Assembly (NCBI GenBank): GCA_002471865.1
Contig: DKQU01000009.1
Location: forward strand, 1,993-40,690
Reading direction: 5' to 3'
From: Fidelibacterota bacterium UBA7300
GTDB taxonomy: Bacteria; Fidelibacterota; Marinisomatia; Marinisomatales; UBA2128
DNA: 38,698 bases
The translations under genes were made by a program, and so were the position numbers. Positions 1,733 to 38,313 of the stretch are shown one piece after another (positions within the stretch are counted from its first letter, which is position 1; each line of letters begins with the position of its first letter). The notes beneath the pieces are model-generated. The model was given only the letters and a program-made list of their open reading frames with translations, was not told the DNA's origin and ran no database searches.

Positions 1733-1749
1733 GTACGAGAGAATAAGCC

Positions 1750-2802
1750 ATGAAACAAATACAAAAGCTGTTAATGATTGTGTTATTAGCAGTTACTCTA
1801 GGGTTTTCACAGGAAATCAATCGATATGGTACCACAGCTGCCAACTTTCTGGAAATCGGAATTGGAAGCGCCGCCAGTGCTATGGGTGAAGCCTATGTTG
1901 GTGTAGCAAATGACTTATCGTCTATTTACTGGAACCCTGCCGGGCTTGCCTCCATCCAACAAAGTGAAGCTCTATTTGTCATTCAACCGTGGGTAATAAA
2001 TATAAATACTCTATTTGCTGGAGCAGCTATTAAGGTTCCTTCTATTGGAACGTTAGCTCTCGGACTTACTCAGGTCGATTATGGTGAAATGGATGTGACT
2101 ACCCTCGAGTATCAGGATGGTACTGGGGAAAAATTCACGGCCAATGATTTAGCTGCCAGCGTATCCTTTGCCCGGAAACTTGTCCCTTGGTTTTCTTTTG
2201 GTGTTTCAGGCAAACTTATTCATTCAAATATCTGGCGCTGCAATGCTAATGCCGTTGCTATGGATTTGGGTGTAATTGTTAATACTCATTTTTTCTCCGT
2301 GACAGGCGAACAAAAGGATGGAATGACCATTGGAATGAGTATCTCGAACTATGGTACCCGGATGAGATACGATGGAATTGATTTGTTGAATCCCATTGAT
2401 ATTTCCCTTTACGAAAATGGAAACTATGGTGATGTACCAGGACAGTTTCGGACTCAAGCCTGGGAATTGCCTTTACTGTTCAGAATTGGGGTTGCTGTCA
2501 AACCTATTGTATCTACATATCATAACCTGATCATTGCTGCTGACGCTCTCCACCCCAACAACAATATGGAGTCTGTCAATGTAGGAACACAATATGAAAT
2601 GCATATACCCGGAGCAGGCAAATTTTACCTGCGTGGTGGCTATAAAGCACTTTTCATGAACAAGACCGAATATGGTATAACTGGCGGAGGAGGAATCAAA
2701 CTCTTCTTCATGGGCAATCATTCCATAACTATCGATTATGCCTACAAGACTATGGGGATCTTGGGGAATGTTCATGCCTACACGGTCGGGATGACATTCT
2801 GA
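1750..2802 (+). CDS. PorV/PorQ-family (LptO-like) T9SS-associated outer-membrane beta-barrel, copy A
   Basis: 350 aa with a signal peptide. The N-terminal motif GTTAANFLEIGIGSAASAMGEAYVGVANDLSSIYWNPAGLA is, as I recall it, the hallmark of PorV/PorQ-family barrels. The C-terminal residue is Phe (..YTVGMTF), as in OMP barrels. It is a full-length paralog of 28081..29115 and lies 17 nt after the upstream stop. Confidence 0.7.
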   Translation: MKQIQKLLMIVLLAVTLGFSQEINRYGTTAANFLEIGIGSAASAMGEAYVGVANDLSSIYWNPAGLASIQQSEALFVIQPWVININTLFAGAAIKVPSIGTLALGLTQVDYGEMDVTTLEYQDGTGEKFTANDLAASVSFARKLVPWFSFGVSGKLIHSNIWRCNANAVAMDLGVIVNTHFFSVTGEQKDGMTIGMSISNYGTRMRYDGIDLLNPIDISLYENGNYGDVPGQFRTQAWELPLLFRIGVAVKPIVSTYHNLIIAADALHPNNNMESVNVGTQYEMHIPGAGKFYLRGGYKALFMNKTEYGITGGGGIKLFFMGNHSITIDYAYKTMGILGNVHAYTVGMTF

Positions 2803-2810
2803 TTCTTTTT

Positions 2811-7538: not shown

Positions 7539-7547
7539 TAATGCAAA

Positions 7548-8783: not shown

Positions 8784-10741
8784 TTATTGGATCAATTTTT
8801 CTTTTAAATATTCTTTTTTCACAGGGATTTTTACATGTCGAAAACGGGAATATTGTTGATGGTGAAGGTAGTCCAGTTATTTTAAAGGGTTTGGGTTTAG
8901 GCGGGTGGTTAGTTCCAGAAGGTTATATGCTCAACATACCAGGATATGGTTCACCCACGGAGATCGAAAATAAAATTGAAGCTTTACTTGGGGCTGATCT
9001 CGCAGCAGAATTTTGGGTTCTTTATCATGAAAATTATGTAGCACAAGCGGATATTGATCAGATTGCAGAATGGGGATTTAATTCTATTCGAATCCCATTT
9101 CATTACAAACAATTTTCACCATTACCAGGTGAAGTAAATCAATTTGGGTATGATATCATTGATTCACTTTTGTCATGGTGTGCACCTTATAACATGCATA
9201 TTATTTTGGATATGCATTGTGCTCCCGGTGGACAAAATAATGGCGAGATTAGTGACAGTGATGGTGTGGCTCGCTTATGGCTTGAGGATGGATATAAAGA
9301 GCATACCATTGAGATTTGGCATTCCATTGCTGAATATTATGCCGATGAGACCCTAATCGGTGGATATGATCTCATTAACGAACCTGTATTACCCGATGGA
9401 ATCAGCAGCGAAGATTTAAGAGAGTTGTACATTGACATTACCAATTCGATCCGGGAAGTAGATACAAACCATCTTCTCTTTATTGAAGGGAATTGGTATG
9501 GTACTGATTTCACTTCCTTGACGCCGCCGTGGGATGACAATATGTCCTATTCCTTTCATAAATACTGGAATGATGTAACGCAGGGCACCATCCAATATTT
9601 AATTAACATGAGCAATACTTATAATATTCCACTTTGGTTGGGTGAAACAGGGGAGAACTCAAATCACTGGGGATATGAAGTCATGCAACTTTGCGAATCA
9701 AATGATATAGGGTGGAACTGGTGGACTCATAAAAAACTGGAAAAAATAACAAGCCCGCTTTCAGCCATTATTACACCTCAATATCAGGATATTCTTGATT
9801 ACTGGAACGGTAACGGAAGCGAGCCAAGTACAGAATATGCCCAGGCTGCCCTGTTTGGTATGGCTATCAACTTAGCTATAGAAAATTGTGAATCCAGGCC
9901 GGGTGTTATTCCTGCACTAATGGACTCAACATATGGTGAATCACCCGTTCCTGTAACAGCTCATTCCATACCGGGAACAATCGCAGCGGTTGATTATGAT
10001 ATTGGTGCGCGAAATGTTGCCTACACTGATGTAGATTATATGAATACTGGAAACGGTGGTTATAATTGGGGTTGGTCCTACAGAAATGATGGTGTTGATA
10101 TTGAAGCTAACGGCGATGAAAATGGTCTACCCTATAATGTGGGCTGGACCGCTGTTGGTGAGTGGATCGGCTATACCATAGAAGATGTGACTGCCGGTAC
10201 TTACGATTTACTGGTCAGGGTATCCAGCAATGTAGACGGCGGGATTTTCTTCCTGGAACTCAATGGAACCAATTTAGGCGTTTTTTCTGTACCACATACC
10301 GGTGGCTGGTGGGCTTGGGAAACGATGACTATCCCAGATGTAATTATTGGTGATGAACCGCAATACCTGAAACTAATGACTGTCCAGGAAGGTTACAATA
10401 TTGAAGGGTTCACTTTTAGCGAAACAGCTAATTCTGGAGATGACGGAAGCGAAGAACTCATTCCCAAATCTTTTACACTGGGGAATTATCCGAATCCATT
10501 TAATTCTCAAACCACGATTTTCTATGATGCTCCATTAACCACTGATGTAAATCTAAGTATCTATGATATCAACGGCGTACAAGTAAAAAGGCTTTATTCC
10601 GGGTTAAGTAGTATTGGGGAAAACAAATTTATTTGGAATGGGGTTAATGATTTAGGTATGTTAGTGAGTTCTGGTGTCTACTTCTACCGACTTGAAGGCA
10701 ATGATTTTGTGCGAACCAGAAAAATGGTTCTAGTCAAATAA
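8765..10741 (+). CDS. GH5 glycoside hydrolase (beta-glucanase, possibly exo-1,3-beta type) + CBM6-like module + T9SS C-terminal sorting domain
   Basis: FNSIRIPFHY, ILDMHCAPGGQNNG, DLINEP (acid/base NEP) and LWLGETGE (nucleophile) are GH5 motifs. The CBM6-like region reads IPGTIAAVDYDIG...GWTAVGEWIGYTIEDVTAGTYDLLVRVSS..GGIFFLELNG. The CTD reads NYPNPFNSQTTIFYDAP...SGVYFYRL...RKMVLVK. The track start is GTG 8765, but ATG 8774 (MRIIIGSIFLLNILFSQG) is likely. Confidence 0.8.
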   Translation: MYSMRIIIGSIFLLNILFSQGFLHVENGNIVDGEGSPVILKGLGLGGWLVPEGYMLNIPGYGSPTEIENKIEALLGADLAAEFWVLYHENYVAQADIDQIAEWGFNSIRIPFHYKQFSPLPGEVNQFGYDIIDSLLSWCAPYNMHIILDMHCAPGGQNNGEISDSDGVARLWLEDGYKEHTIEIWHSIAEYYADETLIGGYDLINEPVLPDGISSEDLRELYIDITNSIREVDTNHLLFIEGNWYGTDFTSLTPPWDDNMSYSFHKYWNDVTQGTIQYLINMSNTYNIPLWLGETGENSNHWGYEVMQLCESNDIGWNWWTHKKLEKITSPLSAIITPQYQDILDYWNGNGSEPSTEYAQAALFGMAINLAIENCESRPGVIPALMDSTYGESPVPVTAHSIPGTIAAVDYDIGARNVAYTDVDYMNTGNGGYNWGWSYRNDGVDIEANGDENGLPYNVGWTAVGEWIGYTIEDVTAGTYDLLVRVSSNVDGGIFFLELNGTNLGVFSVPHTGGWWAWETMTIPDVIIGDEPQYLKLMTVQEGYNIEGFTFSETANSGDDGSEELIPKSFTLGNYPNPFNSQTTIFYDAPLTTDVNLSIYDINGVQVKRLYSGLSSIGENKFIWNGVNDLGMLVSSGVYFYRLEGNDFVRTRKMVLVK

Positions 10742-16767: not shown

Positions 16768-17949
16768 CTATTCAGCACTGTATTCCAAAAGTTCTCTGTC
16801 TAGCTGGAGGAAAAACTTTCCATCCTTGATCGGTAGAATATTCACAACTTTGTGGTAATCCCGGCTCACGGAAATCTCAGAGTGGCCCAACGTCTGCTGA
16901 TCAACGGTCATGATTCCAATGCTCCCCAATTCGTTTTTTCCTTCACTGTAGCGGCTGTTTCCGGCGTACAGGAGATGGACAGAAGAGCCTGCAGTAAAGA
17001 GTTCCAGCGGGATGAGCCTAGAGGGGAACTGAATCTCTGCCAAAGGTCTGTCGCTATTTGGTTTAAGGACAATCAGTCGCCTACTGTCTGCTGCGAACAA
17101 TGTTTCATCCGCCCAAATCATTTTCCTGGGAAGAATTTTGTAGTTGAAAGATGTTAAATCTTCCAGAGACAGTAGTATGAGTCTGTGCTGCTGATTGTAT
17201 TCCTGCCCAGATACAACTGTCCCGGAAATAGCGGCGTAGCCATTGGTGGAAAGAGAAATATTCCGCAGGACAGTAAGCGGCAATTCCTTTATTTCAAAGG
17301 GGGAATCGTTCAGATTCCAAGAGAACAGTGCAACATTATCTGTTTGATCCAGAGCTGCAGATTTCATTCCTGCTATATAAACGTGGCTCGGCGAATGGTG
17401 TGCAATAGCTATAACCTTTTCATGATCTCTATCATCATTGGAGAAGAGTGAATGAAATTCAGAAAGGGTGCCATCTTCATTCAGCAAGCGCACTTCTTGA
17501 CTCTGAGGATCGGTGATCACAATACGATTCCCGCCATTAATTGGGGCAAGGGAAGGAAAGGCATGATCCCAAGGGACATCTATTTCCCCGGAAAAAATCT
17601 CCTCATCCTCACTGGACATGACTGATATGGCCATAGTTCTGGAAGAGAACTGAACCGGATGTTCGATGGTGACGACTACGAATTGCTGAGTTCTATTTGA
17701 AGTGGTGGATATAACCTTCAGTACTTGTTCATTTTTATACTTCGTGATTGTTGGCCCAAGAGAGAGTTCATCTTCTATCCAGTAGCCGACGACTTCTCCA
17801 GCATGTGAAGTCAGAAGCTGAGCCCTCTCCGGAACGTCAAGAATGGTACGATTCTGAAGAGAGACCTGCCCAGAAAGTGATGAGATCGCAAATAGTGTAG
17901 CAAAAACAAGCGATAGATACCAAGTGTGTGTGTGGGTTTTGTACATCAC
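16768..17949 (-). CDS. Hypothetical secreted (periplasmic?) protein with no recognisable domain and no T9SS CTD
   Basis: 393-aa ORF with a signal-peptide-like N-terminus (WYLSLVFATLFAISSLSGQ). It is packed between the GHL10-like and M23 genes, with a 1-nt gap on one side and an 11-nt gap on the other. The only coding evidence is ORF length and operon context. Confidence 0.55.
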   Translation of the reverse strand: MMYKTHTHTWYLSLVFATLFAISSLSGQVSLQNRTILDVPERAQLLTSHAGEVVGYWIEDELSLGPTITKYKNEQVLKVISTTSNRTQQFVVVTIEHPVQFSSRTMAISVMSSEDEEIFSGEIDVPWDHAFPSLAPINGGNRIVITDPQSQEVRLLNEDGTLSEFHSLFSNDDRDHEKVIAIAHHSPSHVYIAGMKSAALDQTDNVALFSWNLNDSPFEIKELPLTVLRNISLSTNGYAAISGTVVSGQEYNQQHRLILLSLEDLTSFNYKILPRKMIWADETLFAADSRRLIVLKPNSDRPLAEIQFPSRLIPLELFTAGSSVHLLYAGNSRYSEGKNELGSIGIMTVDQQTLGHSEISVSRDYHKVVNILPIKDGKFFLQLDRELLEYSAE

Positions 17950-20001: not shown

Positions 20002-21762
20002 TTACTTAAGCAACATCATCTGTTTGGACTTTTCAAAGTTTCCAAACTTCAGCGCATAGATATACATGCCGCTTGTAACATTCATCCCGTTTGCATCTTT
20101 GCCATTCCACAAGACAGAGTAGTTGCCTGCACGTTGATATTCCCTGTCAACAAGCTTCACAATTTCCTGCCCCAACATATTGTAAATAGTCAGAGAAATC
20201 GTATTCTGAAGAGGAAGACTGTACTCAATCCTTGTCGTGGCGTTGAATGGATTCGGGAAGTTCTGTGCCAGTTTGTAATCTTCCGGCATAATGAACGTTA
20301 TATCTCGAACGGTAACGGATCCATCATATTCAGCTAGACGAAAGACACGGTTCCCAGCTGGATCGAGTTCACCGCTTTCAAGAGTATCATTGACAGCTTG
20401 GTAAGGCAATAGAACTCCGAAATCTGCATCTCCCGGAAACCACGCTTTAGCTTTGAAACCCCAACCGGAAGTTGCATCGTCAAGAGCATAAGAGCTATGA
20501 GTCCAACTTGAAGAATCCAGTGGGTTTCCTCCAGCGGCAAGTTCAAACAAGTTAATGTCGCTCACTCCGGCTGTTCCACCATGAATAACTCCACCCATGC
20601 CCGAATTTGTAAAGCCCGCGCCGGTTGAAGTACCAAATCCGCCGCCGCCACCAAATTCGTGAATAATAGCAATCTCACTATTGCCGGTCCAATCACCAGG
20701 GCCGCCCGTTGTGTCAAGATTCGTGGCATCACCATCAGAGTCGGTGATCACAAACAAGCTTCCATCATAGTAACCGGTAACATAGACTTCGTCTTTTCCG
20801 TCGCCGTCATTATCTGCAGCAGAAGCGCCCAGAGTCCAGTCATCGGAAATCCCGAGTTTACGGTATGTTGTGTCGCCAATGGTGTAAGCATCAGGACCGG
20901 TTGCTTCAATAAAGAACATTGCCAGATTATTCCACGAGAAACAGGCTGCTTCCAAATTACCATCACCATCTGTGTCACAGATAATAATTTCCTGAGGGCT
21001 TCCACCACCCAGGGCATTTTCTCTAACGCCGTCTTTATCGACATCCCGGGGTGCCATGGAATATTCTTCCACAATGGTGGCACCAAAACCGCCAATTTCG
21101 CCGTCTACGGACAAAATGATGAACCGATCTTCAGAGTAGGGAGTTGAACCATCCTGAGTCCCATAATACGGATCCGATCCCCCATTATTTGCAAGAAGAA
21201 TCTCATCCTGTCCGTCACCATCAATGTCTCCAACGGAGAATCCTTCAACACGGGATTCACCAAGTGAATCATTCAATGCACTAAAAAAGTCAACCCGAAA
21301 AGCGGCTTCTGTACCGTACCCGTTATCTGTACCGTCCCATTCGTAAACATGCAGCCCTGCATCAGGATTAGACTCTCCTGTCCAGCGTCCAACGTGAAAG
21401 ATGATTTCACCGTTCCCATCGCCATCCAGGTCTCCGGTATGCACATCGCGGGGTGTAGAATAATCTGCGGTTATTTCGGCAGATGCCCACACGAAGGCTA
21501 ACGTATCCGTTCCGGCTTCTTCAAAGCAGAATACTTGGCCACCGTTTGAATAACTGGACACCCAAACTTCGTTGAGGCCGTCGCCATCTAGATCGGTACC
21601 TGCCAGAGATCCACGAGAAACACCAGAGGGATCTCCGCCAAACAGACTGTCACCCGTCTCAGTTATGAACGAGGGAGCAACACCAGATTGTACGAAATCT
21701 CCAGCGAAAACAAAAGATACCGTGCAAGTAATAATAAAAAGACCAGTAACTATTTTTCTCAT
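20002..21762 (-). CDS. FG-GAP/VCBS-repeat (integrin-alpha-like beta-propeller) protein with a T9SS C-terminal sorting domain
   Basis: Signal peptide. Repeated Ca-binding-type motifs are present: TDLDGDGLNEVWV, GDLDGDGNGEIIF, GDIDGDGQDEILL, CDTDGDGNLEAAC and ADNDGDGKDEVYV. The CTD reads QNFPNPFNATTRIEYSLP...SGMYIYAL...KQMMLLK. Confidence 0.8.
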   Translation of the reverse strand: MRKIVTGLFIITCTVSFVFAGDFVQSGVAPSFITETGDSLFGGDPSGVSRGSLAGTDLDGDGLNEVWVSSYSNGGQVFCFEEAGTDTLAFVWASAEITADYSTPRDVHTGDLDGDGNGEIIFHVGRWTGESNPDAGLHVYEWDGTDNGYGTEAAFRVDFFSALNDSLGESRVEGFSVGDIDGDGQDEILLANNGGSDPYYGTQDGSTPYSEDRFIILSVDGEIGGFGATIVEEYSMAPRDVDKDGVRENALGGGSPQEIIICDTDGDGNLEAACFSWNNLAMFFIEATGPDAYTIGDTTYRKLGISDDWTLGASAADNDGDGKDEVYVTGYYDGSLFVITDSDGDATNLDTTGGPGDWTGNSEIAIIHEFGGGGGFGTSTGAGFTNSGMGGVIHGGTAGVSDINLFELAAGGNPLDSSSWTHSSYALDDATSGWGFKAKAWFPGDADFGVLLPYQAVNDTLESGELDPAGNRVFRLAEYDGSVTVRDITFIMPEDYKLAQNFPNPFNATTRIEYSLPLQNTISLTIYNMLGQEIVKLVDREYQRAGNYSVLWNGKDANGMNVTSGMYIYALKFGNFEKSKQMMLLK

Positions 21763-21906: not shown

Positions 21907-24606
21907 ATGAAGGACGAAAAATTGGAAAGGAATTGTTTTGTGAATCTGAACCGTCAGTTTCTTATCCTTCTTTTATTAACATCTAATCTTTTTGCTGCAA
22001 GCGGCAAAGTTTCTGGTAGAATTATTAGTGCAGAAACGGGTGAACCTCTTCCTGGAGTTAATGTTATTATTGAAGAAGTATCACTAGGAGCTGCGACTGA
22101 TTTGAATGGTGAATATGTCATTTTAAATATACCCTCGGGGAGTTATACGCTTCATGTATCTTATATTGGATTTGCTAAGCATACGATTAAGGGTTTAAGC
22201 GTCTATACGGATCGGACAACTCGGCAAGATTTTTCCTTAAAACAGGAAGATATTGAGGGAGAAGAGGTTATAGTGGTAGCAGAAAGACCATTGATCCAGA
22301 AGGATCTAACAGCATCTCAAAAAACTCGAACAGCTGAGGATATTAAAGATATGCCGGTTGAAACCTTCTTGGGTGTTTTAACTACACAAGCAGGAGTAAA
22401 CCAGGGTGCAGGTGGAGAGCTTCATATAAGAGGCGGTCGATACAATGAAGTTGGGTATTACATAGATGGAATATCAGTAACTAATCCTTTTTTCACAAAT
22501 TCCCTTGCCACCAATGTAGCCAATAAAGCTATTGAGGAGATGAGAGTTGTAAGTGGTGCCTTTAATGCGGAATATGGGAATGCCATGAGTGGAATTGTTA
22601 ATCTTGAGATCAAAGAGGGAGGTCCAACATACGAAGGCAGTTTTTCCATGTATACCGGTGATTATCTCTCTAGTGATACCAAGATTTTTATGAATATTGA
22701 CGAGGTAAATTATTTATCCAATCAAGTTATTGAAGGAACGCTTAATGGTCCGGTACCTCTGCTTTCTACCGGGGGGAAATTCACTTTTAACGTAAGTGGA
22801 CGATACAGTAATAGTGACGGATATTTATATGGGAAACGGGAGCATCTGCCGGATGATTATGCAGATTTCAGGGTATCTGATTATTGGTATATTGAATTAG
22901 GTGGTGATAATAAATATGTACCTATGAATCCGTCAAACAGTTTGAATATGCTTACTAAACTAACTCTTAGAATTACCCCTAAGTTGAAAGTGTCGACACA
23001 GATGCTTCACGATCAACGCAATTGGAAATCATATAACCATGCGTACAAATACAATCCTGATGGCACTTACAATCACTTTACTGCAAATGACAATTTTTCT
23101 CTAAAGTTATCCCAAGTCTTCACAAAAACATTTTATGAAGCAAACGTGTTTTATTCTACTACGGATTTTAGCCAATATGTTTATGAAGACCCATTTGATG
23201 AAAGATATGTTTCTACAAATACTATTCAGGGAGCTCCTCCGACTACGACCTTCGTTTTCGGAGGTACACAGATGGGTCATTATTACCGGGAGTCTATATC
23301 CAAAGGAGGTAAATTTGACCTGACCAGCCAGATTACCAGTAAACATGAGATAAAAATAGGTGTTAGTGGTAGACTGGATGATCTTGAAGAAAACAATTTC
23401 ACCGTTCTCTATGATGGTTATGATTACCCAGTACCCACGGTTCTTCCTGCGAATGATTCCCCGAGCCATAACTATTATAACAAAAATGCATTTTTTGCCT
23501 CTTCCTACATTCAGGATAAAATTGAATACACTAACATGGTTGTAAATGCGGGTATCCGGTACGATTATTTTGATCCTAATGATAATTACATTGTGGATCA
23601 GTTAAATCCCGAGGGAGAAAGAGAGGAAGCCAAACCCAAATCAATGATCTCACCACGACTAGGTGTTTCATTTCCCATCACGGATCGCGGAGTTCTTCAC
23701 TTTTCCTATGGACATTTTTATCAAATGCCAACGCTGAGACGACTTTACAAAACCAGCATTTTTGGTGCTAATCTGTCACCGACGATCGGTTACAGTAATT
23801 TAAAGCCGGAAAAGACAGTAATGTATGAGTTTGGACTTCAGCAACAACTGTCTCACATTATAGCAGTTGATGTGAGCGCTTACTACAAGGACATTCGGGA
23901 TTTGCTTGCCGTTCAGTCCATAGATTATCAATCCCCAACTTACGGACCTGCTTCCTATAGCATTTATCTGAACAAAGATTATGCAACGGTGAAGGGTTTT
24001 GCTATCAGCTTAACAAAACGGTACGATCGTTTCTCTAAGACGTCTGCTTTTATTGATTATGCTTATCAGATGACCGATGGAAATGATGTTAACTCTGGAT
24101 CCTTCTACTTCAACGCATTGACAGGGGAAGAAGAGGAGAAAAGAATTGTTCCCCTTAATTGGGATCAATGGCATGTTTTTAACGCTACTATCACTATCAG
24201 TGATCCAAATAACTGGGGCATCAGTGTAATCGGTAAACTTTCAAGCGGTTGGCCTTATACGCCAGATATCCCCAATGCTAATTATGTCCCTGAATCTAAT
24301 AGCGCTCGAAAACCTTGGCAGAAAAGTGTAAATGTCAGAGTGTATAAAACCGTGAATGTGGGGAAAATGAATGTGGTTATATTTACCAAAATTTTTAATC
24401 TTTTTGATACGAGAAATGAAAGATACGTTTATGATGATACTGGTAGATCTGGTTATACTTTTATAAATCGAACCAATCAGGAAACAGAAGCATTTATAGA
24501 ACATTATGGCGAGCCCGGTGTTCATACCTGGGAAGAATATCAAGTTAGACCTCATTACTATAGTACTCCCCGATCAGTACAGATGGGGCTTTCACTGGAT
24601 TTTTAA
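21907..24606 (+). CDS. TonB-dependent outer-membrane receptor with an N-terminal carboxypeptidase-regulatory-like domain
   Basis: GKVSGRIISAETGEPLPGVNVIIEE..GAATDLNGEYVILNIPSGSYTLHVSYIGF is the CarbopepD_reg-like domain. The plug-like region reads EEVIVVAERP...DIKDMPVETFLGVLTTQAGV...LHIRGGR. A ~650-aa barrel follows, ending ..QMGLSLDF with a terminal Phe. The true start may be GTG 21940 (VNLNRQFLILLLLTSNLFAASG), which is preceded by GGAAAGGA. Confidence 0.85.
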   Translation: MKDEKLERNCFVNLNRQFLILLLLTSNLFAASGKVSGRIISAETGEPLPGVNVIIEEVSLGAATDLNGEYVILNIPSGSYTLHVSYIGFAKHTIKGLSVYTDRTTRQDFSLKQEDIEGEEVIVVAERPLIQKDLTASQKTRTAEDIKDMPVETFLGVLTTQAGVNQGAGGELHIRGGRYNEVGYYIDGISVTNPFFTNSLATNVANKAIEEMRVVSGAFNAEYGNAMSGIVNLEIKEGGPTYEGSFSMYTGDYLSSDTKIFMNIDEVNYLSNQVIEGTLNGPVPLLSTGGKFTFNVSGRYSNSDGYLYGKREHLPDDYADFRVSDYWYIELGGDNKYVPMNPSNSLNMLTKLTLRITPKLKVSTQMLHDQRNWKSYNHAYKYNPDGTYNHFTANDNFSLKLSQVFTKTFYEANVFYSTTDFSQYVYEDPFDERYVSTNTIQGAPPTTTFVFGGTQMGHYYRESISKGGKFDLTSQITSKHEIKIGVSGRLDDLEENNFTVLYDGYDYPVPTVLPANDSPSHNYYNKNAFFASSYIQDKIEYTNMVVNAGIRYDYFDPNDNYIVDQLNPEGEREEAKPKSMISPRLGVSFPITDRGVLHFSYGHFYQMPTLRRLYKTSIFGANLSPTIGYSNLKPEKTVMYEFGLQQQLSHIIAVDVSAYYKDIRDLLAVQSIDYQSPTYGPASYSIYLNKDYATVKGFAISLTKRYDRFSKTSAFIDYAYQMTDGNDVNSGSFYFNALTGEEEEKRIVPLNWDQWHVFNATITISDPNNWGISVIGKLSSGWPYTPDIPNANYVPESNSARKPWQKSVNVRVYKTVNVGKMNVVIFTKIFNLFDTRNERYVYDDTGRSGYTFINRTNQETEAFIEHYGEPGVHTWEEYQVRPHYYSTPRSVQMGLSLDF

Positions 24607-24629: not shown

Positions 24630-27600
24630 ATGAAGCTTAAAATAGAAATTTCAAGAACTTCTATTTTTCTTCTTTTGATAAGTTTATTAATAATTATTCC
24701 TTTCAATACGCTCTCCAGTCAATGGAAGTTCTTTGGAAAGAAAGATAATACAGCCATGCACGAACTTGTGCCAGAAAAGGATTGGCCTGAGTGGAAATAC
24801 CGCGACTACTACGACTGGCGTAACACGGCATTGATGAGACAGTTGGATGATGAAGATGACCCGCAGATACTTAGACGGCAAAAAGCTATTCTTGTAGGTA
24901 ATAAGATTTCCGCTGAAATCTGGAATTTTGGATCTATTTCCAGCCCAGGAAATCATACTTCCGATATTGTATGGGAAGGACTCGGATATGGATATGAATT
25001 TGGTCCGTTTATTTGCGCAGAAGTTGAAGTGACTCCATCCAGCCATCAGGATGCTTACATCAAGACCGATGAACTTGGAAATCCGGTTATCAACGAGGAG
25101 GGCGACACTGTCTGGGTAGCGAGAGTCATTAGTGATGGTTTGGTTTCTCTGGGAGGTGAAGTATCACCTGATGGTCAAGAATTCTGGGGATGGCAGCCTC
25201 TTGCATATAACAATGAGCTTGTTCCTTATGCGGATCCTAACAGCAATTATATCCCCACATCAAATGATGTGGACCGCGATGGTGATGGTAAACCAGACAG
25301 CTGGCCTGAAGGGTGGTACAATGAGAATCTAAAGGAATTTGTTTGGCCCGGGGCTCTAAAACAAGGTGCATCTAATTCTGATATGGAAAGCTTCTTTGTG
25401 GTGGACGACCGAACTAACAAGGAATTTGAATATTATCCAATCAGCAACGATTCTACCCGTAAAGGACTTGGAATTGAAATTGAATGTCGGTATTACCAGT
25501 GGTCCAACCCTTTAGCTGAAGATATTATTTTTCTTATTTACAAAGTTACTAATGTCAGTGACAAAGATCTTGAGGAAGTCATATTTGGAATGTGGGGTGA
25601 TCCCCATGTTGGCGGATGGGCAAACTGGCAGGATGACCTCTCCTTTTTTGATCAAGATATAAATATGGTGTACTGCTGGGATGAAGATGGAGTCAGTGAT
25701 GTGTCTGGACGTCCCCCGGGGTATTTTGGCTATAAATTTCTGGAGAGTCCAGGGAACCCATATGATGGTATAGATAACGACGATGATAATATGATAGACG
25801 AAAGCCGGAGTGACGGAATCGATAACGATTTAGATTGGGATGTTGAAAAACATGATGTTGGAGTTGACGGTCTTCCTAATACTGGCGACGAAGGTGAAGG
25901 AGATGGTGAGCCAACCGCAGGAGATCCTTTTGATATCCGCGAACCTGGAGAACCTAATTACGAATGGACTGACTTGGACGAGGCGGATATGGTGGGGTTA
26001 ACAGGATTTTCCTCACCTGTGTTCGGAGGAAATAACACCATATCAGAAGATCATCACGTATTCGAAGATTTTTTGACTCCGGGAGTATTTGATTCTGCAA
26101 ATGCTAATACGGCCGGAGATTATATTTTCATCTACAGCTCAGGACCGATTGATCTACCTGCTGGAGAAGCTCGGCGGTTTTCAGTCGCATTGTTGGTAGG
26201 ACAAAATTATCAAGATCTTACATTGAATGCTGTGACAGCTCAAAGCATATATGAGCGGAATTATCAATTTGCAAAACCTCCTGAAAAACCTAAGGTCACA
26301 GCTGTTCCAGGTGATGAGAAGGTGACCTTCTACTGGGATGACGTGGCGGAATCTTCTGTGGATCCAATTTCAGAAACAGAAGATTTTGAGGGGTATGTTA
26401 TCTATCGCAGCACCGATCCGCAGTTCTTGGATCAGCAAACAATCACAGACGCTTACGGTTCGAATTTTCTGTTTACTCCACTAGAAATGGTGGGAGGAGC
26501 CCCTGCCCGATTTGACCTTGATAATGAATATAGCGGTTTAAGTGATATTCTTTATACCGGGCATGGTATTCCCTATAACCTTGGCAACAATACTGGAATC
26601 CTGCACTCTTTTGTGGACTCTAACAATGTGATTAACGGTCAAACATATTACTATGCCGTTGTCTCTTATGATCATGGAGATGATAGCTTGGAGATAGCTC
26701 CCGCAGAATGTTCCAAACTGATTACACTAAATCCTGAATCGAACGAAATTTTCCTCGATGTGAATACAGTACAGATCATTCCTCGCTCTCCCGCTGCAGG
26801 ATATGTGGAAGGACAAGTAATAGATGATGATATTTTACACCTATCGGGAATTGCTACAGGGAACCTGAGAGTTGAGATTATCGATCCTATGAAAATAGAA
26901 GATCAGGATACATTTAAAGTAACTTTTCAGGAGTCGCCAACTCGGTTTTCCATTGAGGACCTGAAACTCATAGATGATCAGTTTATCGCCAATGTAGATA
27001 AATTTATCTCTCTTTCTCATAAGAATATCAATGATAGTACTTTTTATCTTACAGATACGGCAGAAGTAAATATCTATAACAGAGATGTAGATTATGAACT
27101 TGATGCAGAATTCGGTCGTATAAAAGCCCTCGCTACTGGAGATTTGGAGGATGGAATCCTCTATTTTGCCAAGTATACCTACTTACCGATTTTTGAGAGC
27201 CAGTTGATAGATAATGAAGAAGCGAATCCTGTATTTGATGGGATGAAGATCTTTGTTGAAGACCAACCCTTGGAGATTGACATTTCAAAGACGGGATGGA
27301 ATGCATTAAGTCCGACAAATTATACTGCAGTTGTCGGAGTGTATTCACAAGGTGGGAACTCTTATCCGGCAGATTATGAAGTTCGTTTTGCATCATCAAT
27401 TGTTGACACAGGATCTTATTCAGGCATTTTTACTCCATTCAATATATATAAAACCACTATGGGCATGGTTCCCGAAAAGCAGAGGTTTGCAATTATCAAA
27501 AAACCGCCCGATGTAAGCAATGATACCTGGGACACGCACGATGAAATCGTGTTGTTTGAGGGAGAGGGATTTGGATCGCCAACTTGGATGATTAAATTCT

Positions 27601-28061
27601 TTGAACCAAGTGAGGGAACACCTGTTCTTCCGACGGAAGATGACATTTTCTATGTCTTTACTTCCCGCCCATTCTATGAAGATGATGTATATACTTTTGC
27701 TACACAGGCATCTTATATAGACAATCAGCTCGGGGAAGCAAGTTTAGATCAAATATCGGTAGTTCCAAATCCCTACGTAGTAACTAATGTTTTGGAACAA
27801 CTAGATCGCCAAAATCCGAGAGACCGTGGTCCTCGACGGGTATATTTCAACCATTTACCTACAGAGTGTACGATTCGTATATATACAATGTCAGGTGAAT
27901 TAGTAAAAACCCTGTATCATCAATCTGATCTTGATGATGGTAAGGAATTTTGGGATCTGACGACGAAAGATAATTTCCCAATTGCTTATGGTGTTTATAT
28001 CTTTCACGTGGATGCCGGAGAATTGGGGCAAAAGATTGGTCGTCTTGGTGTCATTAAATAA
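24630..28061 (+). CDS. Giant (1143 aa) secreted/surface protein of unknown function. It has an Asp-rich Ca-binding-type repeat region, an Fn3-like segment and a variant T9SS-like C-terminal domain. Paralog of 2..1732.
   Basis: Hydrophobic N-terminal signal/anchor (SIFLLLISLLIIIPF). The Asp-rich region, at about nt 25764..25934, reads YDGIDNDDDNMIDESRSDGIDNDLDWDVEKHDVGVDGLPNTGDEGEGDGEPTAGDPFD. The Fn3-like stretch reads PEKPKVTAVPGDEKVTFYWDD...FEGYVIYRS. The C-terminus reads ISVVPNPYVVTNVLEQLDRQNPRDRGPRRVYFNHLPTECTIRIYTMSGELV...GVYIFHV...GRLGVIK. AGGAG lies 13 nt upstream, and the gene starts 23 nt after the receptor stop. Confidence 0.8.
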   Translation: MKLKIEISRTSIFLLLISLLIIIPFNTLSSQWKFFGKKDNTAMHELVPEKDWPEWKYRDYYDWRNTALMRQLDDEDDPQILRRQKAILVGNKISAEIWNFGSISSPGNHTSDIVWEGLGYGYEFGPFICAEVEVTPSSHQDAYIKTDELGNPVINEEGDTVWVARVISDGLVSLGGEVSPDGQEFWGWQPLAYNNELVPYADPNSNYIPTSNDVDRDGDGKPDSWPEGWYNENLKEFVWPGALKQGASNSDMESFFVVDDRTNKEFEYYPISNDSTRKGLGIEIECRYYQWSNPLAEDIIFLIYKVTNVSDKDLEEVIFGMWGDPHVGGWANWQDDLSFFDQDINMVYCWDEDGVSDVSGRPPGYFGYKFLESPGNPYDGIDNDDDNMIDESRSDGIDNDLDWDVEKHDVGVDGLPNTGDEGEGDGEPTAGDPFDIREPGEPNYEWTDLDEADMVGLTGFSSPVFGGNNTISEDHHVFEDFLTPGVFDSANANTAGDYIFIYSSGPIDLPAGEARRFSVALLVGQNYQDLTLNAVTAQSIYERNYQFAKPPEKPKVTAVPGDEKVTFYWDDVAESSVDPISETEDFEGYVIYRSTDPQFLDQQTITDAYGSNFLFTPLEMVGGAPARFDLDNEYSGLSDILYTGHGIPYNLGNNTGILHSFVDSNNVINGQTYYYAVVSYDHGDDSLEIAPAECSKLITLNPESNEIFLDVNTVQIIPRSPAAGYVEGQVIDDDILHLSGIATGNLRVEIIDPMKIEDQDTFKVTFQESPTRFSIEDLKLIDDQFIANVDKFISLSHKNINDSTFYLTDTAEVNIYNRDVDYELDAEFGRIKALATGDLEDGILYFAKYTYLPIFESQLIDNEEANPVFDGMKIFVEDQPLEIDISKTGWNALSPTNYTAVVGVYSQGGNSYPADYEVRFASSIVDTGSYSGIFTPFNIYKTTMGMVPEKQRFAIIKKPPDVSNDTWDTHDEIVLFEGEGFGSPTWMIKFFEPSEGTPVLPTEDDIFYVFTSRPFYEDDVYTFATQASYIDNQLGEASLDQISVVPNPYVVTNVLEQLDRQNPRDRGPRRVYFNHLPTECTIRIYTMSGELVKTLYHQSDLDDGKEFWDLTTKDNFPIAYGVYIFHVDAGELGQKIGRLGVIK

Positions 28062-28080
28062 TGAAAAAGTAAAAAAAAAG

Positions 28081-29115
28081 ATGAAGTCAACTATCAAGAT
28101 TCAACTCTTATGCCTACTTGTCTTTGGGAACTTTGGTTGGTCCCAATTGGATAACGTGCAGACGATCACCAAAACAGGGACCACTGCAGCACAATTCTTG
28201 AAGATTGGTGTAGATCCAAGAGGATCATCTATGGGGAATGCTTTTACAGCGATGCCAGGAGATGTCAGTTCTATGTTCTGGAATCCTGCTGGGTTAACCG
28301 CTGTAAAAAGGATCGAATCCATGTTTGTTGAAAGTGATTGGCTGGCAGGAGTGAGTTATAATTATTTGGCTCTTGCACTACCGATTCGTAGTATAGGTGT
28401 GCTAGGGATGAGCATCACAAACTTATCTGTTCCTGAAGAGATCGTTCGTACGGTAACTGACCCGGAGGGCACTGGAGAATATTGGGATGCACAAGATCTG
28501 GCAATCAATCTTGCTTTTGCTAGAACTTTAACTGACAGGTTTTCTATAGGTGCAAATATTAAATATATTCAACAGAATATTTGGCATGCCACCGCCGATG
28601 CATTTGCTGTGGATATAGGTGCTCTGTTCATCACACCGTGGGGAGTCCGATTGGGGGCAAGCCTTGCCAATTATGGTAATTATATGAGACTGTCTGGACG
28701 GGATCAAAAATTAAGTGTTGATCCTGATCCTCAGAACCAAGGAAACGTTGAATTTGTAAATGCCATGTATGAGACAGATTATTTTCCTCTTCCACTCATG
28801 TTTCGTGTAGGATTATCAGGAGAGATTATAAAAACCAATGCATTGCGGCTTAGTTTTGGTGTGGATGCACTGCATCCAAACGATAACAGTGAAGCGGTTA
28901 ACGCTGGGTTTGAAATGGCAATGGGTGAGACTATTTTCCTCCGGGGTGGACATGCAAACCTGTTCAGAGAAGGTGCCGAAGAGGGATTTACACTTGGTGG
29001 AGGGATTCATTATAGGTTAAAGAGTAGTCCTACAATTATTAAGATAGATTATTCCTATTCTGATTTTAGCAGGTTAGAAGGAGTCCAACGAATATCCATG
29101 GGGATTAAATTTTAG
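28081..29115 (+). CDS. PorV/PorQ-family (LptO-like) T9SS-associated outer-membrane beta-barrel, copy B
   Basis: MKSTIKIQLLCLLVFGNFGWSQ is the signal peptide. GTTAAQFLKIGVDPRGSSMGNAFTAMPGDVSSMFWNPAGLTA follows. The protein is collinear with 1750..2802 over its full length (..ALHPNDNSEAVNAG..FLRGG...IDYSY..) and ends ..MGIKF. The track ORF start at 27982 lies inside the upstream gene, so ATG 28081 is preferred. Confidence 0.7.
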   Translation: MKSTIKIQLLCLLVFGNFGWSQLDNVQTITKTGTTAAQFLKIGVDPRGSSMGNAFTAMPGDVSSMFWNPAGLTAVKRIESMFVESDWLAGVSYNYLALALPIRSIGVLGMSITNLSVPEEIVRTVTDPEGTGEYWDAQDLAINLAFARTLTDRFSIGANIKYIQQNIWHATADAFAVDIGALFITPWGVRLGASLANYGNYMRLSGRDQKLSVDPDPQNQGNVEFVNAMYETDYFPLPLMFRVGLSGEIIKTNALRLSFGVDALHPNDNSEAVNAGFEMAMGETIFLRGGHANLFREGAEEGFTLGGGIHYRLKSSPTIIKIDYSYSDFSRLEGVQRISMGIKF

Positions 29116-29215: not shown

Positions 29216-30517
29216 ATGAATAAAAAACTAAGTGTCATCTTTGTTTATCTAATTATTGTTATCTTTCCTCAATCTGGATTTTGTTTCTCTGATATCGCTC
29301 AGAAAATATCAAGTCAGATAGTCTCCCGCGTATTAAGGTCAGGACAAGTTGTACAGCTCATCGGTGTTACCGAGGATTATACTAATATGGGTAATATTGA
29401 AGGAGTAGCTATCCACATTTATTCGGAAAATATTCCAGATGTTTCTCTCCGTTTTCAATATGATAATGGTAACTGGTCGGAGTGGCAAAACGCCCAACTG
29501 TTTACTGAGCCGTTTTCGTACCGTTCCATTGCCTGGTTCAGGGGTGAACTGGCCAAATCATCCATGCGATATGAATATAACACTTCCGTTCAGCAGGGTA
29601 GCATAGAGATACTAAGTGTTGGCCTGTTTCTTGAAGATAATGAAGAATATCCCATTGTATCTGAAATCCCCAAAGTAACACCACATGATTTGCAAAAACC
29701 CCGTATTATTACCAGAGAAGAGTGGGGAGCTCAACCCCCAACACATGGTTATACAAATCACCCATACTTTACAAAGTTAACTCTTCACCATGCGGCGGGA
29801 TTTTCCGCCTCGAATATTGAAGAAGGGAAAATTCAGATGAGGGCTATTCAAGACTTTCATCAGATTGTCCGTGGATGGAGTGATATTGGTTATCACTTTG
29901 TTGTTGATCGAGCAGGTAACATTTATCAAGGGAGACCTGAGACAGTAATTGGTGCTCATGTGCTTAGCCATAACACGGGCAATATTGGTGTATGTGTTCT
30001 AGGGTGTTATCATCCACCGGAATTGTATTGTAATGATCAACTTACTCAAGCTTCAAGAGATTCGCTGGTCAAACTTTACGCGTGGATTTCTGAAACATAT
30101 GACTATAATCCTTATGTTCTTCTCGGTCATAGAGATTATCCAGACAATGATACTTCATGCCCTGGTAACAATGTCTGGTCTCTTTTATATTCAATAAGAG
30201 ATGCAATAAATATTTATATAGAAATGGGAGGGCCTCCACTTTACTATACATTATCACAGAATTATCCTAACCCATTTAATCTGCAAACAACAATTCTCTT
30301 CGATTTACCAAAAGAAAGTATGGTTCATTTGACTATATTTAACATCCAGGGTAGAGTAGTAAAAAAAGTTGTAGACCAGATTATGAATAAGGGAATACAG
30401 ACAGTTATGTGGGATGGAAGAAATATTGAAGATACCCAAGTAAGTGCAGGAGTTTATCTATACCAAATAGAGGCTGGAGATTTTGTGCAGACCAAGAAGA
30501 TGGTGCTCCTAAAGTAA
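29216..30517 (+). CDS. N-acetylmuramoyl-L-alanine amidase (Amidase_2/PGRP-type) with a T9SS C-terminal sorting domain
   Basis: ITREEWGAQPP...LTLHHAAG...IQDFHQIVRGWSDIGYHFVVDRAGNIYQGRP...GAHVLSHNTGNIGVCVLG...SCPG is the amidase_2 (T7-lysozyme/PGRP) pattern. The CTD reads QNYPNPFNLQTTILFDLP...AGVYLYQI...KKMVLLK. Confidence 0.8.
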   Translation: MNKKLSVIFVYLIIVIFPQSGFCFSDIAQKISSQIVSRVLRSGQVVQLIGVTEDYTNMGNIEGVAIHIYSENIPDVSLRFQYDNGNWSEWQNAQLFTEPFSYRSIAWFRGELAKSSMRYEYNTSVQQGSIEILSVGLFLEDNEEYPIVSEIPKVTPHDLQKPRIITREEWGAQPPTHGYTNHPYFTKLTLHHAAGFSASNIEEGKIQMRAIQDFHQIVRGWSDIGYHFVVDRAGNIYQGRPETVIGAHVLSHNTGNIGVCVLGCYHPPELYCNDQLTQASRDSLVKLYAWISETYDYNPYVLLGHRDYPDNDTSCPGNNVWSLLYSIRDAINIYIEMGGPPLYYTLSQNYPNPFNLQTTILFDLPKESMVHLTIFNIQGRVVKKVVDQIMNKGIQTVMWDGRNIEDTQVSAGVYLYQIEAGDFVQTKKMVLLK

Positions 30518-36336: not shown

Positions 36337-37425
36337 ATGTTAAAAAAATTGATCGGGGGACTATTTATTGTATCAATATCTTTTGGCCAAACCACAGCCA
36401 ACCCCCAATTTAGTGTGGTAGGTGATTTAATTATGAATGACCTTCATAATAATCCAAACTTATATAGTTCAGGAATAGAGATTGCTGTTCAAGGATATGT
36501 GAATCCTTTTGCACGGGCAGATGTCTATTTACATAAACACAATGATGAATCAGCACTGGAATTAGAAGAAGCTGTAATGACGATCGAAAGAGGGCTGCCA
36601 TTTGGTCTTGGATTAAGGGCCGGTAAGTTTAGACCAGACCTTGGGAAAATCAATAAAGATCATGCACATTTATTCCCTTTTATTGAAGCTCCTTCTGGTA
36701 TGGCTAATATTTTAGGTAAAGAGTTTTGGGCAGGGACAGGTCTTGAAGCTAGTATATTTCTGCCTGTACCTTGGTACAGTAATATATCTATTGGTTTATT
36801 TGATTCAGGATTAGGTGATCATGATCATGACATTGAAAAAGAAGATGTTCATAATGATCATAAAGATAAAGATGAACACGTAGATGAGCATGATCATGGA
36901 ATAAATGAAAAAAAGGAAAAAGTTTTTTCAGCTAGATGGGGTCATTTTTTCGAACTTAGTGATATAAACCTTATGGAAATAGGCACCAGTTATTATAAAG
37001 GTCCTGAGAGTAGTTTGATGGGAGCAGATTTCAAGTATAAATGGCGCCCCAACAAGTATCGTTCACTAACAATACAAGGTGAAATAGTACAGCTTAGTAT
37101 AAAAGAAGAGCATCATGAAGAAAAACATGCGGATGAAGTTTATAAGGGAGAGTACAAAAATAAATCAGATGCAGGATATCTGATGATTAACTATCAGTTT
37201 AATAAATCATTTAATTTTGGCATAATCGGTGATTATTATAGAGAGACGGATAAAGGGGCCGAAATCAATCCATCAATATTTTTCGGATTTAGCCCTGTTG
37301 AAGAATCAACTGTATTTAGATTGAAGATTGGACAGGTTGAAGATCATAAGAGTCATAAAAAACATTTAAAAACAACAGCTCAGATTATTTGGTCATTAGG
37401 TCCACATAAACCTCACCGATATTAA
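36337..37425 (+). CDS. Putative outer-membrane beta-barrel (porin-like) protein with His/Asp/Glu-rich loops
   Basis: Signal peptide LFIVSISFGQ. The sequence alternates in a beta-strand-like way and ends ..PHKPHRY with a terminal aromatic residue. The metal-ligand-rich inserts are GDHDHDIEKEDVHNDHKDKDEHVDEHDHG, KEEHHEEKHADE and EDHKSHKKH. AAGGAAAA lies upstream. It lies directly upstream of the znuA-like gene, with a 3-nt gap. Confidence 0.6.
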   Translation: MLKKLIGGLFIVSISFGQTTANPQFSVVGDLIMNDLHNNPNLYSSGIEIAVQGYVNPFARADVYLHKHNDESALELEEAVMTIERGLPFGLGLRAGKFRPDLGKINKDHAHLFPFIEAPSGMANILGKEFWAGTGLEASIFLPVPWYSNISIGLFDSGLGDHDHDIEKEDVHNDHKDKDEHVDEHDHGINEKKEKVFSARWGHFFELSDINLMEIGTSYYKGPESSLMGADFKYKWRPNKYRSLTIQGEIVQLSIKEEHHEEKHADEVYKGEYKNKSDAGYLMINYQFNKSFNFGIIGDYYRETDKGAEINPSIFFGFSPVEESTVFRLKIGQVEDHKSHKKHLKTTAQIIWSLGPHKPHRY

Positions 37426-37428
37426 TCC

Positions 37429-38313
37429 ATGAGAAAATTGATCATTATAAGTTCTCTTTTCACTTGTCTTTATGGTCAAGTTCGAGTTGTATCTTCAACA
37501 TCGGATATTGCAGATATAGTAAAGATCATTGGCGGAGAGAATGTTACAGTCACAAGTATAGCACGAGGAAATCAAGATCCACATTATGTAGAAATCCTAC
37601 CTTCATACATGATTAAGGTAAGAAAAGCCGATATTTATTTTATGGTTGGAATGGAACTTGATCTTTGGGCTCAACAAATTATTAATGGTTCAAGAAATCA
37701 AAAAGTGTTAGTGGTGGACTGTTCAGTTGAGATAAATAAAATGGAAGTTCCCACTGGGCAGATTGATGCAAGCATGGGTGATATTCATCGATTTGGTAAT
37801 CCTCACTACTGGCTAGATCCTGAAAATGGGAAATTAATAGCCAAAGTAGTAACAGAAAAATTGAGTAATTACGACCCCAAAAACGCTAATCAATACAAAA
37901 CAAACCTTTATCAATTTGAAACAGATTTAGATTCCGCAATGTCAAAATGGAATAATAAGTTTTCCATTCTTAAAGATAAAAAAATAATATTTTATCATAA
38001 TTCCTGGCCCTATTTCTCAAAAAGGTTTGGCTTAATTACAGTTGGTTTTCTGGAACCAAAGCCGGGGATAACACCCTCGCCGTCGCAATTGATTCAAGTC
38101 ATTAATCAAATAAAAGAAAATGAAATTGAAGTCATTGCCTCTGAATCCTATTTCAGCGATAGAGCACCGAAATTTATTGAGTCAAAGACAAATGTAAGAA
38201 CAGTCAAATTAGCTCAATCTGTTGGCGCAATTGAAGGTGCGAATTCTTATATCAACCTTTTCGAGACCAACCTTCTTATTTTAGCAGAAGCGTATGGAGT
38301 TATGTATGATTGA
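37429..38313 (+). CDS. znuA: Metal (zinc/manganese) ABC transporter substrate-binding protein, ZnuA/TroA family
   Basis: GNQDPHYVE, GNPHYWLDPENG, FYHNSWPYFSKRFGL and EPKPGITPSPSQL are typical cluster-A-I SBP motifs. Confidence 0.8.
   Translation: MRKLIIISSLFTCLYGQVRVVSSTSDIADIVKIIGGENVTVTSIARGNQDPHYVEILPSYMIKVRKADIYFMVGMELDLWAQQIINGSRNQKVLVVDCSVEINKMEVPTGQIDASMGDIHRFGNPHYWLDPENGKLIAKVVTEKLSNYDPKNANQYKTNLYQFETDLDSAMSKWNNKFSILKDKKIIFYHNSWPYFSKRFGLITVGFLEPKPGITPSPSQLIQVINQIKENEIEVIASESYFSDRAPKFIESKTNVRTVKLAQSVGAIEGANSYINLFETNLLILAEAYGVMYD

Follow-up and report, generated by a model that had tools for sequence, protein, structure and literature searches.

A variant T9SS-like C-terminal domain on giant proteins encoded between a TonB-dependent receptor and a PorV/PorQ-family barrel in Fidelibacterota and related bacteria

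The contig DKQU01000009.1 of Fidelibacterota bacterium UBA7300 (GenBank assembly GCA_002471865.1) encodes two giant paralogous proteins, here named gA and gB, that end in an unusual version of the C-terminal domain (CTD) known from type IX secretion system (T9SS) cargo. We analyzed a stretch of 38,698 nucleotides of this contig (positions 1,993 to 40,690 of the forward strand), which is referred to as the window and to which all coordinates relate unless another locus is named. A sequence-only reading of the window by a model had noticed the variant tail on the two giants and had proposed that it is a distinct CTD subtype, found only on proteins beside a private PorV/PorQ-like outer-membrane barrel and acting as a recognition code. 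In the analysis presented here the variant tail forms a discrete class and is a fixed domain of one widespread protein family, and the giants are encoded in a three-gene operon together with a TonB-dependent receptor and a PorV/PorQ-family barrel. The two modules consist of the following features:

21907..24606, + strand: TonB-dependent receptor, first gene of module B, with CarboxypepD_reg (PF13715, 74.9 bits), Plug (PF07715, 44.3 bits) and a barrel
24630..28061, + strand: giant gB, 1143 aa, with an N-terminal hydrophobic helix taken for a signal peptide, a conserved region of ~720 aa, a variable part (~725-1010), a pre-CTD domain and the variant CTD
27753..28061, + strand: variant CTD of gB, made up of the final 102 codons and the stop codon in the 1143-aa open reading frame (ORF) 24630..28061, beginning with 'ISVVPNPYV'
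27771..27836, + strand: family-specific loop between strand 1 (VVPNPY) and strand 2 (RVYFNH), with an invariant Glu and RG.R; predicted local distance difference test (pLDDT) below 50 in both AlphaFold2 (AF2) models
28081..29115, + strand: barrel B, PorV/PorQ-family outer-membrane barrel (NF033709 191.1 bits, cutoff 90)
2..1732, + strand: giant paralog gA, C-terminal 576 aa, cut by the window edge; its orthologs lie in clusters of TonB-dependent receptor, giant and barrel
1424..1732, + strand: variant CTD of gA, the equivalent stretch of the paralog 2..1732, which runs past the left window edge
1750..2802, + strand: barrel A, PorV/PorQ-family outer-membrane barrel (NF033709 206.5 bits, cutoff 90; PF19572 38.8 bits), 36% identical to barrel B

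Variant and canonical C-termini in the window

Ten proteins in the window have T9SS-like C-termini: gA, gB and eight proteins with a canonical CTD, whose ORFs start or end at 4288, 5886, 8765, 14633, 17951, 20002, 29216 and 30608. These eight make up the T9SS cargo set of the organism within the window. We compared all ten C-termini with the curated models for type-A CTDs (TIGR04183, cutoff 23 bits, and PF18962, cutoff 27 bits) and with the type-B model TIGR04131. The eight canonical C-termini scored 25.2–43.7 bits on TIGR04183, all above the cutoff, and 16.5–33.4 bits on PF18962. gA reached 16.8 bits on TIGR04183 (E 0.005), which is below the cutoff, and had no match to PF18962; gB matched neither of the two models at E≤1. 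TIGR04131 gave no match at E≤1 for any of the ten. This comparison had been suggested in the sequence-only reading, and at the TIGR04183 cutoff it sets the two giants apart from the other eight proteins. The canonical CTDs themselves had been described as near-identical and are in fact only 24–38% identical to the first of them (A4).

The sequence features ascribed to the variant tail were then followed across 149 representative family members. VVPNPY is kept in at least 90% of them, the conserved Cys is found in 140 (Ala or Ser takes its place in 8) and the conserved terminus ends with Lys in 147. The insertion of ~20 aa is real as well: in the AF2 model of gB strand 1 corresponds to VVPN and is followed by a low-confidence stretch (residues 1048-1067) before strand 2 begins. 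Its description as rich in basic residues was too strong: the segment from PNPY to the Phe of 'YF.HLP' has a mean of 3.4 Lys/Arg and a net charge of +1.4 and is thus only mildly basic. This segment has a constant length of 24–25 residues, and within it one Glu is invariant (149/149) and RG.R is near-invariant.

An alternative alignment by MAFFT equated 'SNPF' of gA with the canonical 'PNPF', so that VVPNPYV would be an N-terminal extension. It was rejected because AF2 places strand 1 at VVPN, followed by the loop, and because 'NPF' is not conserved across the family. A disulfide between the CTD Cys and the barrel was also considered. It is unsupported, since barrel A has one Cys and mature barrel B none at that position, and since the CTD Cys itself is replaced in the 8 members mentioned above.

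One protein family in a three-gene operon

A profile of the variant tail was searched against 1.84 billion representative proteins, with clusters at 50% identity. With a threshold of E≤1e-3 we obtained 7165 clusters, of E≤1e-10 still 2254. The alignment reaches the last residue of the protein in each of the best 150 matches (150/150). All representatives of at least 500 aa within these 150 (60/60) also carry the conserved N-terminal region of ~720 aa of the giants, and those below 500 aa are too short for this region and look like fragments. The tail had been pictured as a recognition code; rather than being portable among assorted cargo, it is a fixed domain of one protein family. In species-representative genomes we counted at least 590 loci with a variant CTD, distributed over Marinimicrobia/Neomarinimicrobiota, KSB1, Ignavibacteriota (including Ignavibacterium album and Melioribacter), Rhodothermales, Calditrichota, Kryptonia and Fidelibacterota.

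Local hidden Markov models (HMMs) of the variant and the canonical tails were used to score every ORF of 87 fetched loci and of the window. On the variant HMM the variant tails reached 133–172 bits, compared with 26 bits or less on the canonical one. For canonical tails the values were 20–128 bits on their own HMM and no more than 28.5 bits on that of the variant. Intermediate scores between the two classes did not occur among these ORFs. For the CTD of gB the values are 154 bits on the variant versus 15 bits on the canonical HMM, and for that of gA 143 versus 25 bits. The variant CTD is a discrete class and not the tail end of the canonical distribution, which bears out the idea of a distinct subtype. 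Since weak cross-matches of 15–28 bits are seen in both directions, the two classes are homologous. Judged from its sequence, the variant CTD is homologous to the T9SS CTD of type A but has diverged from it and contains a fixed ~20-aa insert. It has in common with the canonical type-A CTDs a homologous C-terminal sandwich, predicted to be seven-stranded, the PNP motif on strand 1, the G..V strand and the terminal Lys. It differs from them in scoring below the curated cutoffs, in the insert with its invariant Glu, in the conserved Cys and in having a private barrel where the canonical pathway has a shared PorV. As a class, this probable T9SS cargo is missed by current type-A models.

The gap between the stop of the giant and the start of the barrel is 18 nt for gA and barrel A and 20 nt for gB and barrel B. 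The mechanical ORF of barrel B starts at TTG 27982 and overlaps the end of gB (27982..28080); ATG 28081, with a signal-peptide-like N-terminus (MKSTIKIQ...), is the likelier start. Both barrels lie below the equivalog cutoffs for PorV, PorQ and PorV2. Linkage was counted from the 93 ORFs with a variant tail in the 87 loci and the window, 92 of which have enough downstream sequence. A PorV/PorQ-family ORF on the same strand starts between -205 and +513 nt from the end of the giant in 88 of these 92, and a PorV/PorQ-family barrel is located somewhere in the cluster for 91 of the 92 assessable genes. Other gene orders are receptor-barrel-giant (locus L042) and receptor-giant-giant-peptidyl-prolyl isomerase (PPIase)-barrel (locus L077), the latter with two giants and a single barrel. 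Of the approximately 100 canonical-CTD ORFs in the same loci none is directly followed by such a barrel. Co-occurrence with a private PorV/PorQ-family barrel, noticed on two proteins of the window, thus holds family-wide (91/92 versus 0/~100 canonical CTD genes). As a correction to the sequence-only reading, the canonical-CTD amidase gene 29216..30517 adjoins barrel B as well, though on the downstream side of the barrel; this adjacency is not conserved in KSB1.

Type-B CTDs have cognate PorP/SprF-like carriers and remain uncleaved and anchored on these carriers (PMC9143113, PMC12618676). In type-B pairs such as SprB-SprF and PG1035-PorP a CTD subtype other than type A is likewise genetically linked to its own FadL-family barrel, the principle put forward in the sequence-only reading. 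Unlike these, the variant tail has no TIGR04131 match, and its barrels belong to the PorV/PorQ family, with no PorP/SprF model among their matches. The variant CTD is moreover a type-A-like sandwich with an insert, belongs to a single protein family, has a TonB-dependent receptor as a partner and occurs mainly outside Bacteroidia and Flavobacteriia. With its 91/92 linkage the variant is organized like a type-B/carrier pair, without thereby being a type-B member.

The receptor had been overlooked in the sequence-only reading, which caught two of the three operon parts. In module B it stops 24 nt before gB, and nearly every locus with sufficient sequence has a homologous receptor with CarboxypepD_reg and Plug domains directly upstream of the giant. 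Because of this receptor directly upstream of the giant, the unit is a three-gene operon of TonB-dependent receptor, giant and PorV/PorQ-family barrel. A scan of module B for promoters and terminators gave counts equal to those in shuffled controls. On the SusC/RagA model TIGR04056 the receptor of module B scores 81 bits over its N-terminal part only and does not reach the cutoff of 368.

The TonB-dependent receptor is flanked by a gene for an FG-GAP protein with a canonical CTD (20002..21762, minus strand). This arrangement is seen in 18 loci including the window, and the FG-GAP neighbor is kept beside gB-type modules across Marinimicrobia, KSB1, Rhodothermales and Ignavibacteria.

Anatomy and predicted fold of the giants

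The giants of the family are ~1000–1600 aa long. gB has more than 2835 homologs, with ~60% identity between Marinimicrobia and KSB1. At E≤1 it matches nothing in Pfam, whose models leave both giant and tail uncovered, and no NCBIfam model scores above its cutoff. According to a conservation map derived from the alignment, residues 1 to ~720 contain many invariant Asp, Gly and aromatic positions; read by eye, this region seems to comprise Asp-rich Ca-binding-like repeats and an FN3-like segment. Residues ~725–1010 are variable, and the pre-CTD domain and the CTD are conserved again. The variable region holds BNR or Reg_prop propellers in other family members. gA and gB have in common only the last ~186 aa (33% identity), a longer stretch than the ~103 aa described before, and the junction motif 'IP..PAAGY'. 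Within gB, 26991..27185 (aa 788-852) scores 33.5 bits on NF052337 ('phage tail tube protein 6XGR'), under the cutoff of 60, and is probably a shared Ig-like domain.

Two further features belong to the gA locus:

224..724, + strand: insert of gA, one module of ~165 aa (gA aa 75-241); the module is tandemly repeated 3–6 times in PKD-domain proteins of marine Bacteroidota and in a protein of glycoside hydrolase family 16 (GH16)
2811..4310, + strand: parvulin-like PPIase protein, accessory gene, with a weak Rotamase_2 match and a lipobox-like N-terminus

The description of laminarin-binding carbohydrate-binding module (CBM) repeats of surface glycan-binding proteins (SGBPs) fits the repeats related to the gA insert, a match by description only (bioRxiv 10.1101/2023.09.07.556657). 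By this analogy, the insert is probably glycan (laminarin) binding. gA is followed by the barrel, the PPIase-like protein, three GH16 genes and a GH5-CBM6 gene, and the same order is repeated in L006 and L007 with the receptor in front. About 20 of the 87 loci have a PPIase-like homolog that either follows the barrel directly or immediately precedes the receptor, with clearer matches in L042 (10426..11838) and L077 (13494..14960).

The stretch 2..10741 as a whole resembles a laminarin polysaccharide utilization locus (PUL) without SusD, in which two of the three GH16 genes have canonical CTDs and GH5, CBM6 and a CTD are combined in one gene; the cluster in L007 also has a LacI-type regulator. 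Elsewhere in the window, 36337..38313 contains the gene of a 362-aa protein with a signal-peptide-like N-terminus and a long His/Asp/Glu-rich stretch but without a family match, directly followed by an ORF of 294 aa that by eye is periplasmic metal-binding-like, possibly a metal-uptake pair. Between two canonical-CTD genes a 393-aa protein (16768..17949, minus strand) has a signal-peptide-like N-terminus and no Pfam or NCBIfam match; it is conserved in the Tara contigs L003-L005.

The AF2 model of full-length gB has a mean pLDDT of 63.7 and is confident only at residues 720-1143. A CTD-only model (pLDDT 74.6) consists of a short helix and seven strands with a low-confidence loop at the insert, and the variant CTD is accordingly predicted as a seven-stranded beta-sandwich. 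When the CTD model was compared with the PDB by Foldseek, PorZ ranked first (5m11; E 1.1e-4, TM 0.65, rmsd 2.5 Å, 23% identity) and PorU took ranks 2 and 3 (6za2). Lower down the list came generic sandwiches and type-A CTDs bound in the SprA-PorV translocon (8glk_D, rank 8; 8gl8_D, rank 12). A sequence profile of the variant CTD searched against the whole PDB matched the same two proteins and no others, PorU 6za2 with E 0.0087 and PorZ 5m11 with E 0.022. The alignment with PorZ extends to the last residue ('RFAVIR' versus 'KFAVIK') and aligns the Cys. A profile of the whole gB protein family had no match in the PDB. Foldseek with the full gB model returned weak matches to the N-terminal sandwich of GH94/GH116, and its superposition on PorZ is meaningless (rmsd 31.8); these were discarded.

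A beta-sandwich is a generic fold that is also like FlgD and other Ig-like domains, and no curated T9SS CTD model passed its cutoff on the variant tail. The tail could hence be an Ig/FlgD-like structural domain and not a secretion signal, in which case the giant would be periplasmic or would reach the surface by another route and still be a partner of the receptor. We regard this as very improbable in view of the CTD-like position at the extreme C-terminus and the conserved terminal Lys, and the best matches in fold as well as in sequence are T9SS CTDs. The partner barrel also belongs to a T9SS carrier family, the protein family is confined to lineages of the Fibrobacterota-Chlorobiota-Bacteroidota (FCB) group, and T9SS cargo is abundant in the window.

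PorV serves as the anchor of PorU and PorQ as that of PorZ (PMC12365241). Among solved structures, the CTDs of PorU and PorZ, two members of the P. gingivalis attachment complex, come closest to the variant CTD, both in the profile search and in the predicted fold. This suggests another explanation, in which the gB-type module is part of the T9SS or outer-membrane machinery and the giant a PorZ/PorU analog on a PorQ/PorV-like barrel, e.g. in a complex for attachment or surface assembly that is specific to the lineage, with the gA-type modules as later specializations. The identity of ~60% between gB orthologs of Marinimicrobia and KSB1 and their location among housekeeping genes in KSB1 would fit, as would the recurrence of PPIase genes in the modules, since PPIases are present in the SprA translocon and in the beta-barrel assembly machinery of Bacteroidota (PMC10994853, PMC12578637). 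Against it, the PorZ and PorU equivalog models (NF052228 and NF033707) give only 18.3 and 14.1 bits (cutoffs 260 and 420), in the CTD alone and not at all for gB, and the giants have no C25 peptidase domain (no Peptidase_C25 match) and no PDB match for the whole protein. The barrels, too, stay below the PorV and PorQ equivalog cutoffs. The TonB-dependent receptor is a constant partner and several paralogous modules are possible per genome, and neither has a counterpart in the PorU/PorZ system; paralogs have inserts of ligand-binding type and are located in glycoside-hydrolase clusters. A machinery role of this kind is quite improbable in our view.

Co-variation and a proposed capture-and-uptake complex

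Partial correlations of pairwise identities were calculated from distance matrices (mirror-tree) for 55 complete modules. The strongest were found between the N-terminal domain of the giant and the receptor (0.565) and between barrel and receptor (0.44), and both are consistent with a capture-and-uptake complex. In genomes with several modules the tail cores are 41–67% identical, the loops are mostly more divergent (compared ungapped) and the barrels are 37–57% identical. The divergence of tails and loops between paralogs is weakly compatible with specificity. The tandem pairs of L065 and L077, which are recent duplicates, were excluded from these ranges.

In L077 (7082..13572) the tandem giants are 100% identical over the C-terminal ~570 aa, also in the last 900 nt compared, and 72–88% identical in their N-terminal halves. 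The sharing of one barrel by these two giants was considered as a case of CTD matching and rejected, because the whole C-terminal ~570 aa are identical and not the CTD alone; it reflects recent duplication or gene conversion, or an assembly artefact.

The explanation we favor is that the operon-encoded giant is exported by the T9SS, that its CTD is retained on the private barrel and that it feeds the TonB-dependent receptor; taken as a whole, we give it about an even chance of being correct. The giant would cross the inner membrane via Sec and would then be exported by the T9SS, with the private barrel as carrier instead of the housekeeping PorV. It would remain on the cell surface, its uncleaved CTD being docked on the private barrel. 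Retention and docking had been suggested in the sequence-only reading, and the resemblance to the CTDs of PorU and PorZ fits this; we infer both by analogy with the anchoring of PorZ by PorQ, of PorU by PorV and of type-B CTD proteins by PorP/SprF-like barrels (precedents in PMC9143113, PMC12618676, PMC12365241, PMC10994853). The pair of barrel and giant would be located beside the TonB-dependent receptor, where the variable middle of the giant would bind substrate and feed the receptor, and the complex would fill the role of SusD or of SGBPs. The glycan-type module of gA, the cluster with three GH16 genes and GH5, and the propeller inserts of other family members suggest such a substrate-binding role of the giants.

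This proposal invites comparison with the SusC/SusD and SGBP complexes. There, too, a CarboxypepD_reg TonB transporter stands beside a large surface protein in glycoside-hydrolase clusters, as with GH16 (three genes) and GH5 at the gA locus. The giant, however, has no SusD-type match, the receptor is not of the SusC family (81 bits versus 368), and the giant would be anchored by CTD and barrel, where SusD and SGBPs are lipid-anchored.

Several results weigh against the favored explanation. On the 3.2-kb contig L082 an aldolase-like gene lies downstream of the giant and no barrel is present there. The matches in the PDB are weak and the mean pLDDT of the CTD model is only 74.6. The resemblance to PorZ and PorU is not exclusive to the variant, because the canonical CTD profile matches both proteins too (28.5 bits for PorU, 19.9 bits for PorZ), with scores slightly above those of the variant profile; it further matches FlgD and gingipain CTDs. 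An identity of ~60% between gB-type giants across phyla is unusual for a nutrient binder, and a housekeeping role could account for it. Finally, CTD and barrel have a partial correlation of only 0.13, without any CTD-specific co-variation in the 55 modules, and no other part of the module is as conserved as the CTD, with a mean identity of 56% versus 43–46% elsewhere. Recognition by a partner that is shared and conserved would explain this no less well than a private code. Because of the low correlation and the high conservation, the recognition code of the sequence-only reading is unsupported in the form of a diversifying code; the surface that the CTD contacts may be a conserved one, either on the barrel or on the translocon.

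The correlation data also bear on a more conventional explanation. The variant could be an ordinary divergent type-A tail that is exported with the housekeeping PorV, cleaved by PorU, and released or attached to anionic lipopolysaccharide. The barrel would then not bind the CTD but serve the receptor, as a FadL-type channel or a BamG-like platform, and the genes would be linked since all three serve one uptake pathway. Homology between variant and canonical CTDs is detectable, with gA at 16.8 bits on TIGR04183, and co-variation of the barrel is far stronger with the receptor (partial r 0.44) than with the CTD (0.13). FadL-family barrels that are not carriers exist: in BamG-BamH a 14-stranded FadL-family barrel is packed on another barrel and serves extracellular proteins as a platform, and the complex includes PPIases (PMC12578637). 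The matches of barrel B (11.8 bits) and of the L042 barrel (25.6 bits) to the BamG model are faint, with a cutoff of 250, and the partners in BamG-BamH are lipoproteins and not CTD proteins. A merely divergent type-A tail is furthermore hard to reconcile with the sharp separation from the canonical CTDs of the same genomes and with the insert of fixed length and invariant Glu, and a disposable generic tag would not be expected to be the most conserved part of the protein. The barrels are solid members of the PorV/PorQ family (191–207 bits), and none of the ~100 canonical CTD genes has such a barrel directly downstream. We consider export as ordinary type-A cargo rather unlikely.

All three alternatives discussed here are weakened by the separation of the classes, the conserved insert, the barrel from a carrier family and the hydrolase-cluster context. 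That a CTD subtype has its own barrel is a known principle. For the combination of a type-A-like CTD with an insert, a barrel of the PorV/PorQ clade, a TonB-dependent receptor and a single family of giants, spread over several mostly uncultured FCB phyla, we found a description neither in papers nor in Pfam or NCBIfam. In the literature we found no paper dealing with both PorV and Marinimicrobia, and literature on PorV-like barrels, TonB receptors and these phyla yielded no description of the module. The variant tail probably marks an undescribed surface nutrient-capture complex. More tentatively, and with somewhat less than even confidence, we propose a third pairing of T9SS signal and carrier, in which a PorZ/PorU-like CTD with an insert and a barrel of the PorV/PorQ clade would build, together with the TonB-dependent receptor, a widespread capture-uptake complex in Marinimicrobia, Ignavibacteriota, KSB1, Calditrichota and Rhodothermales. 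It would be the missing functional counterpart of SusD and SGBPs for FCB phyla whose genomes have TonB receptors and glycoside-hydrolase clusters but lack SusD.

To our knowledge the FCB lineages concerned mostly lack SusD. Marinimicrobia, Ignavibacteriota, KSB1 and Calditrichota are abundant, mostly uncultured degraders that would capture polymers at the cell surface without SusD. If the proposal is true, the three-gene module, present in thousands of sequence clusters, would be a machine to study and a marker for PUL-like loci outside Bacteroidia. The principle of the cognate carrier, so far represented by PorP/SprF with type-B CTDs, would extend to the PorV/PorQ clade. The module is also found in genomes that are assigned to Melioribacter and Ignavibacterium. 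As both genera have members in culture, the proposal is testable.

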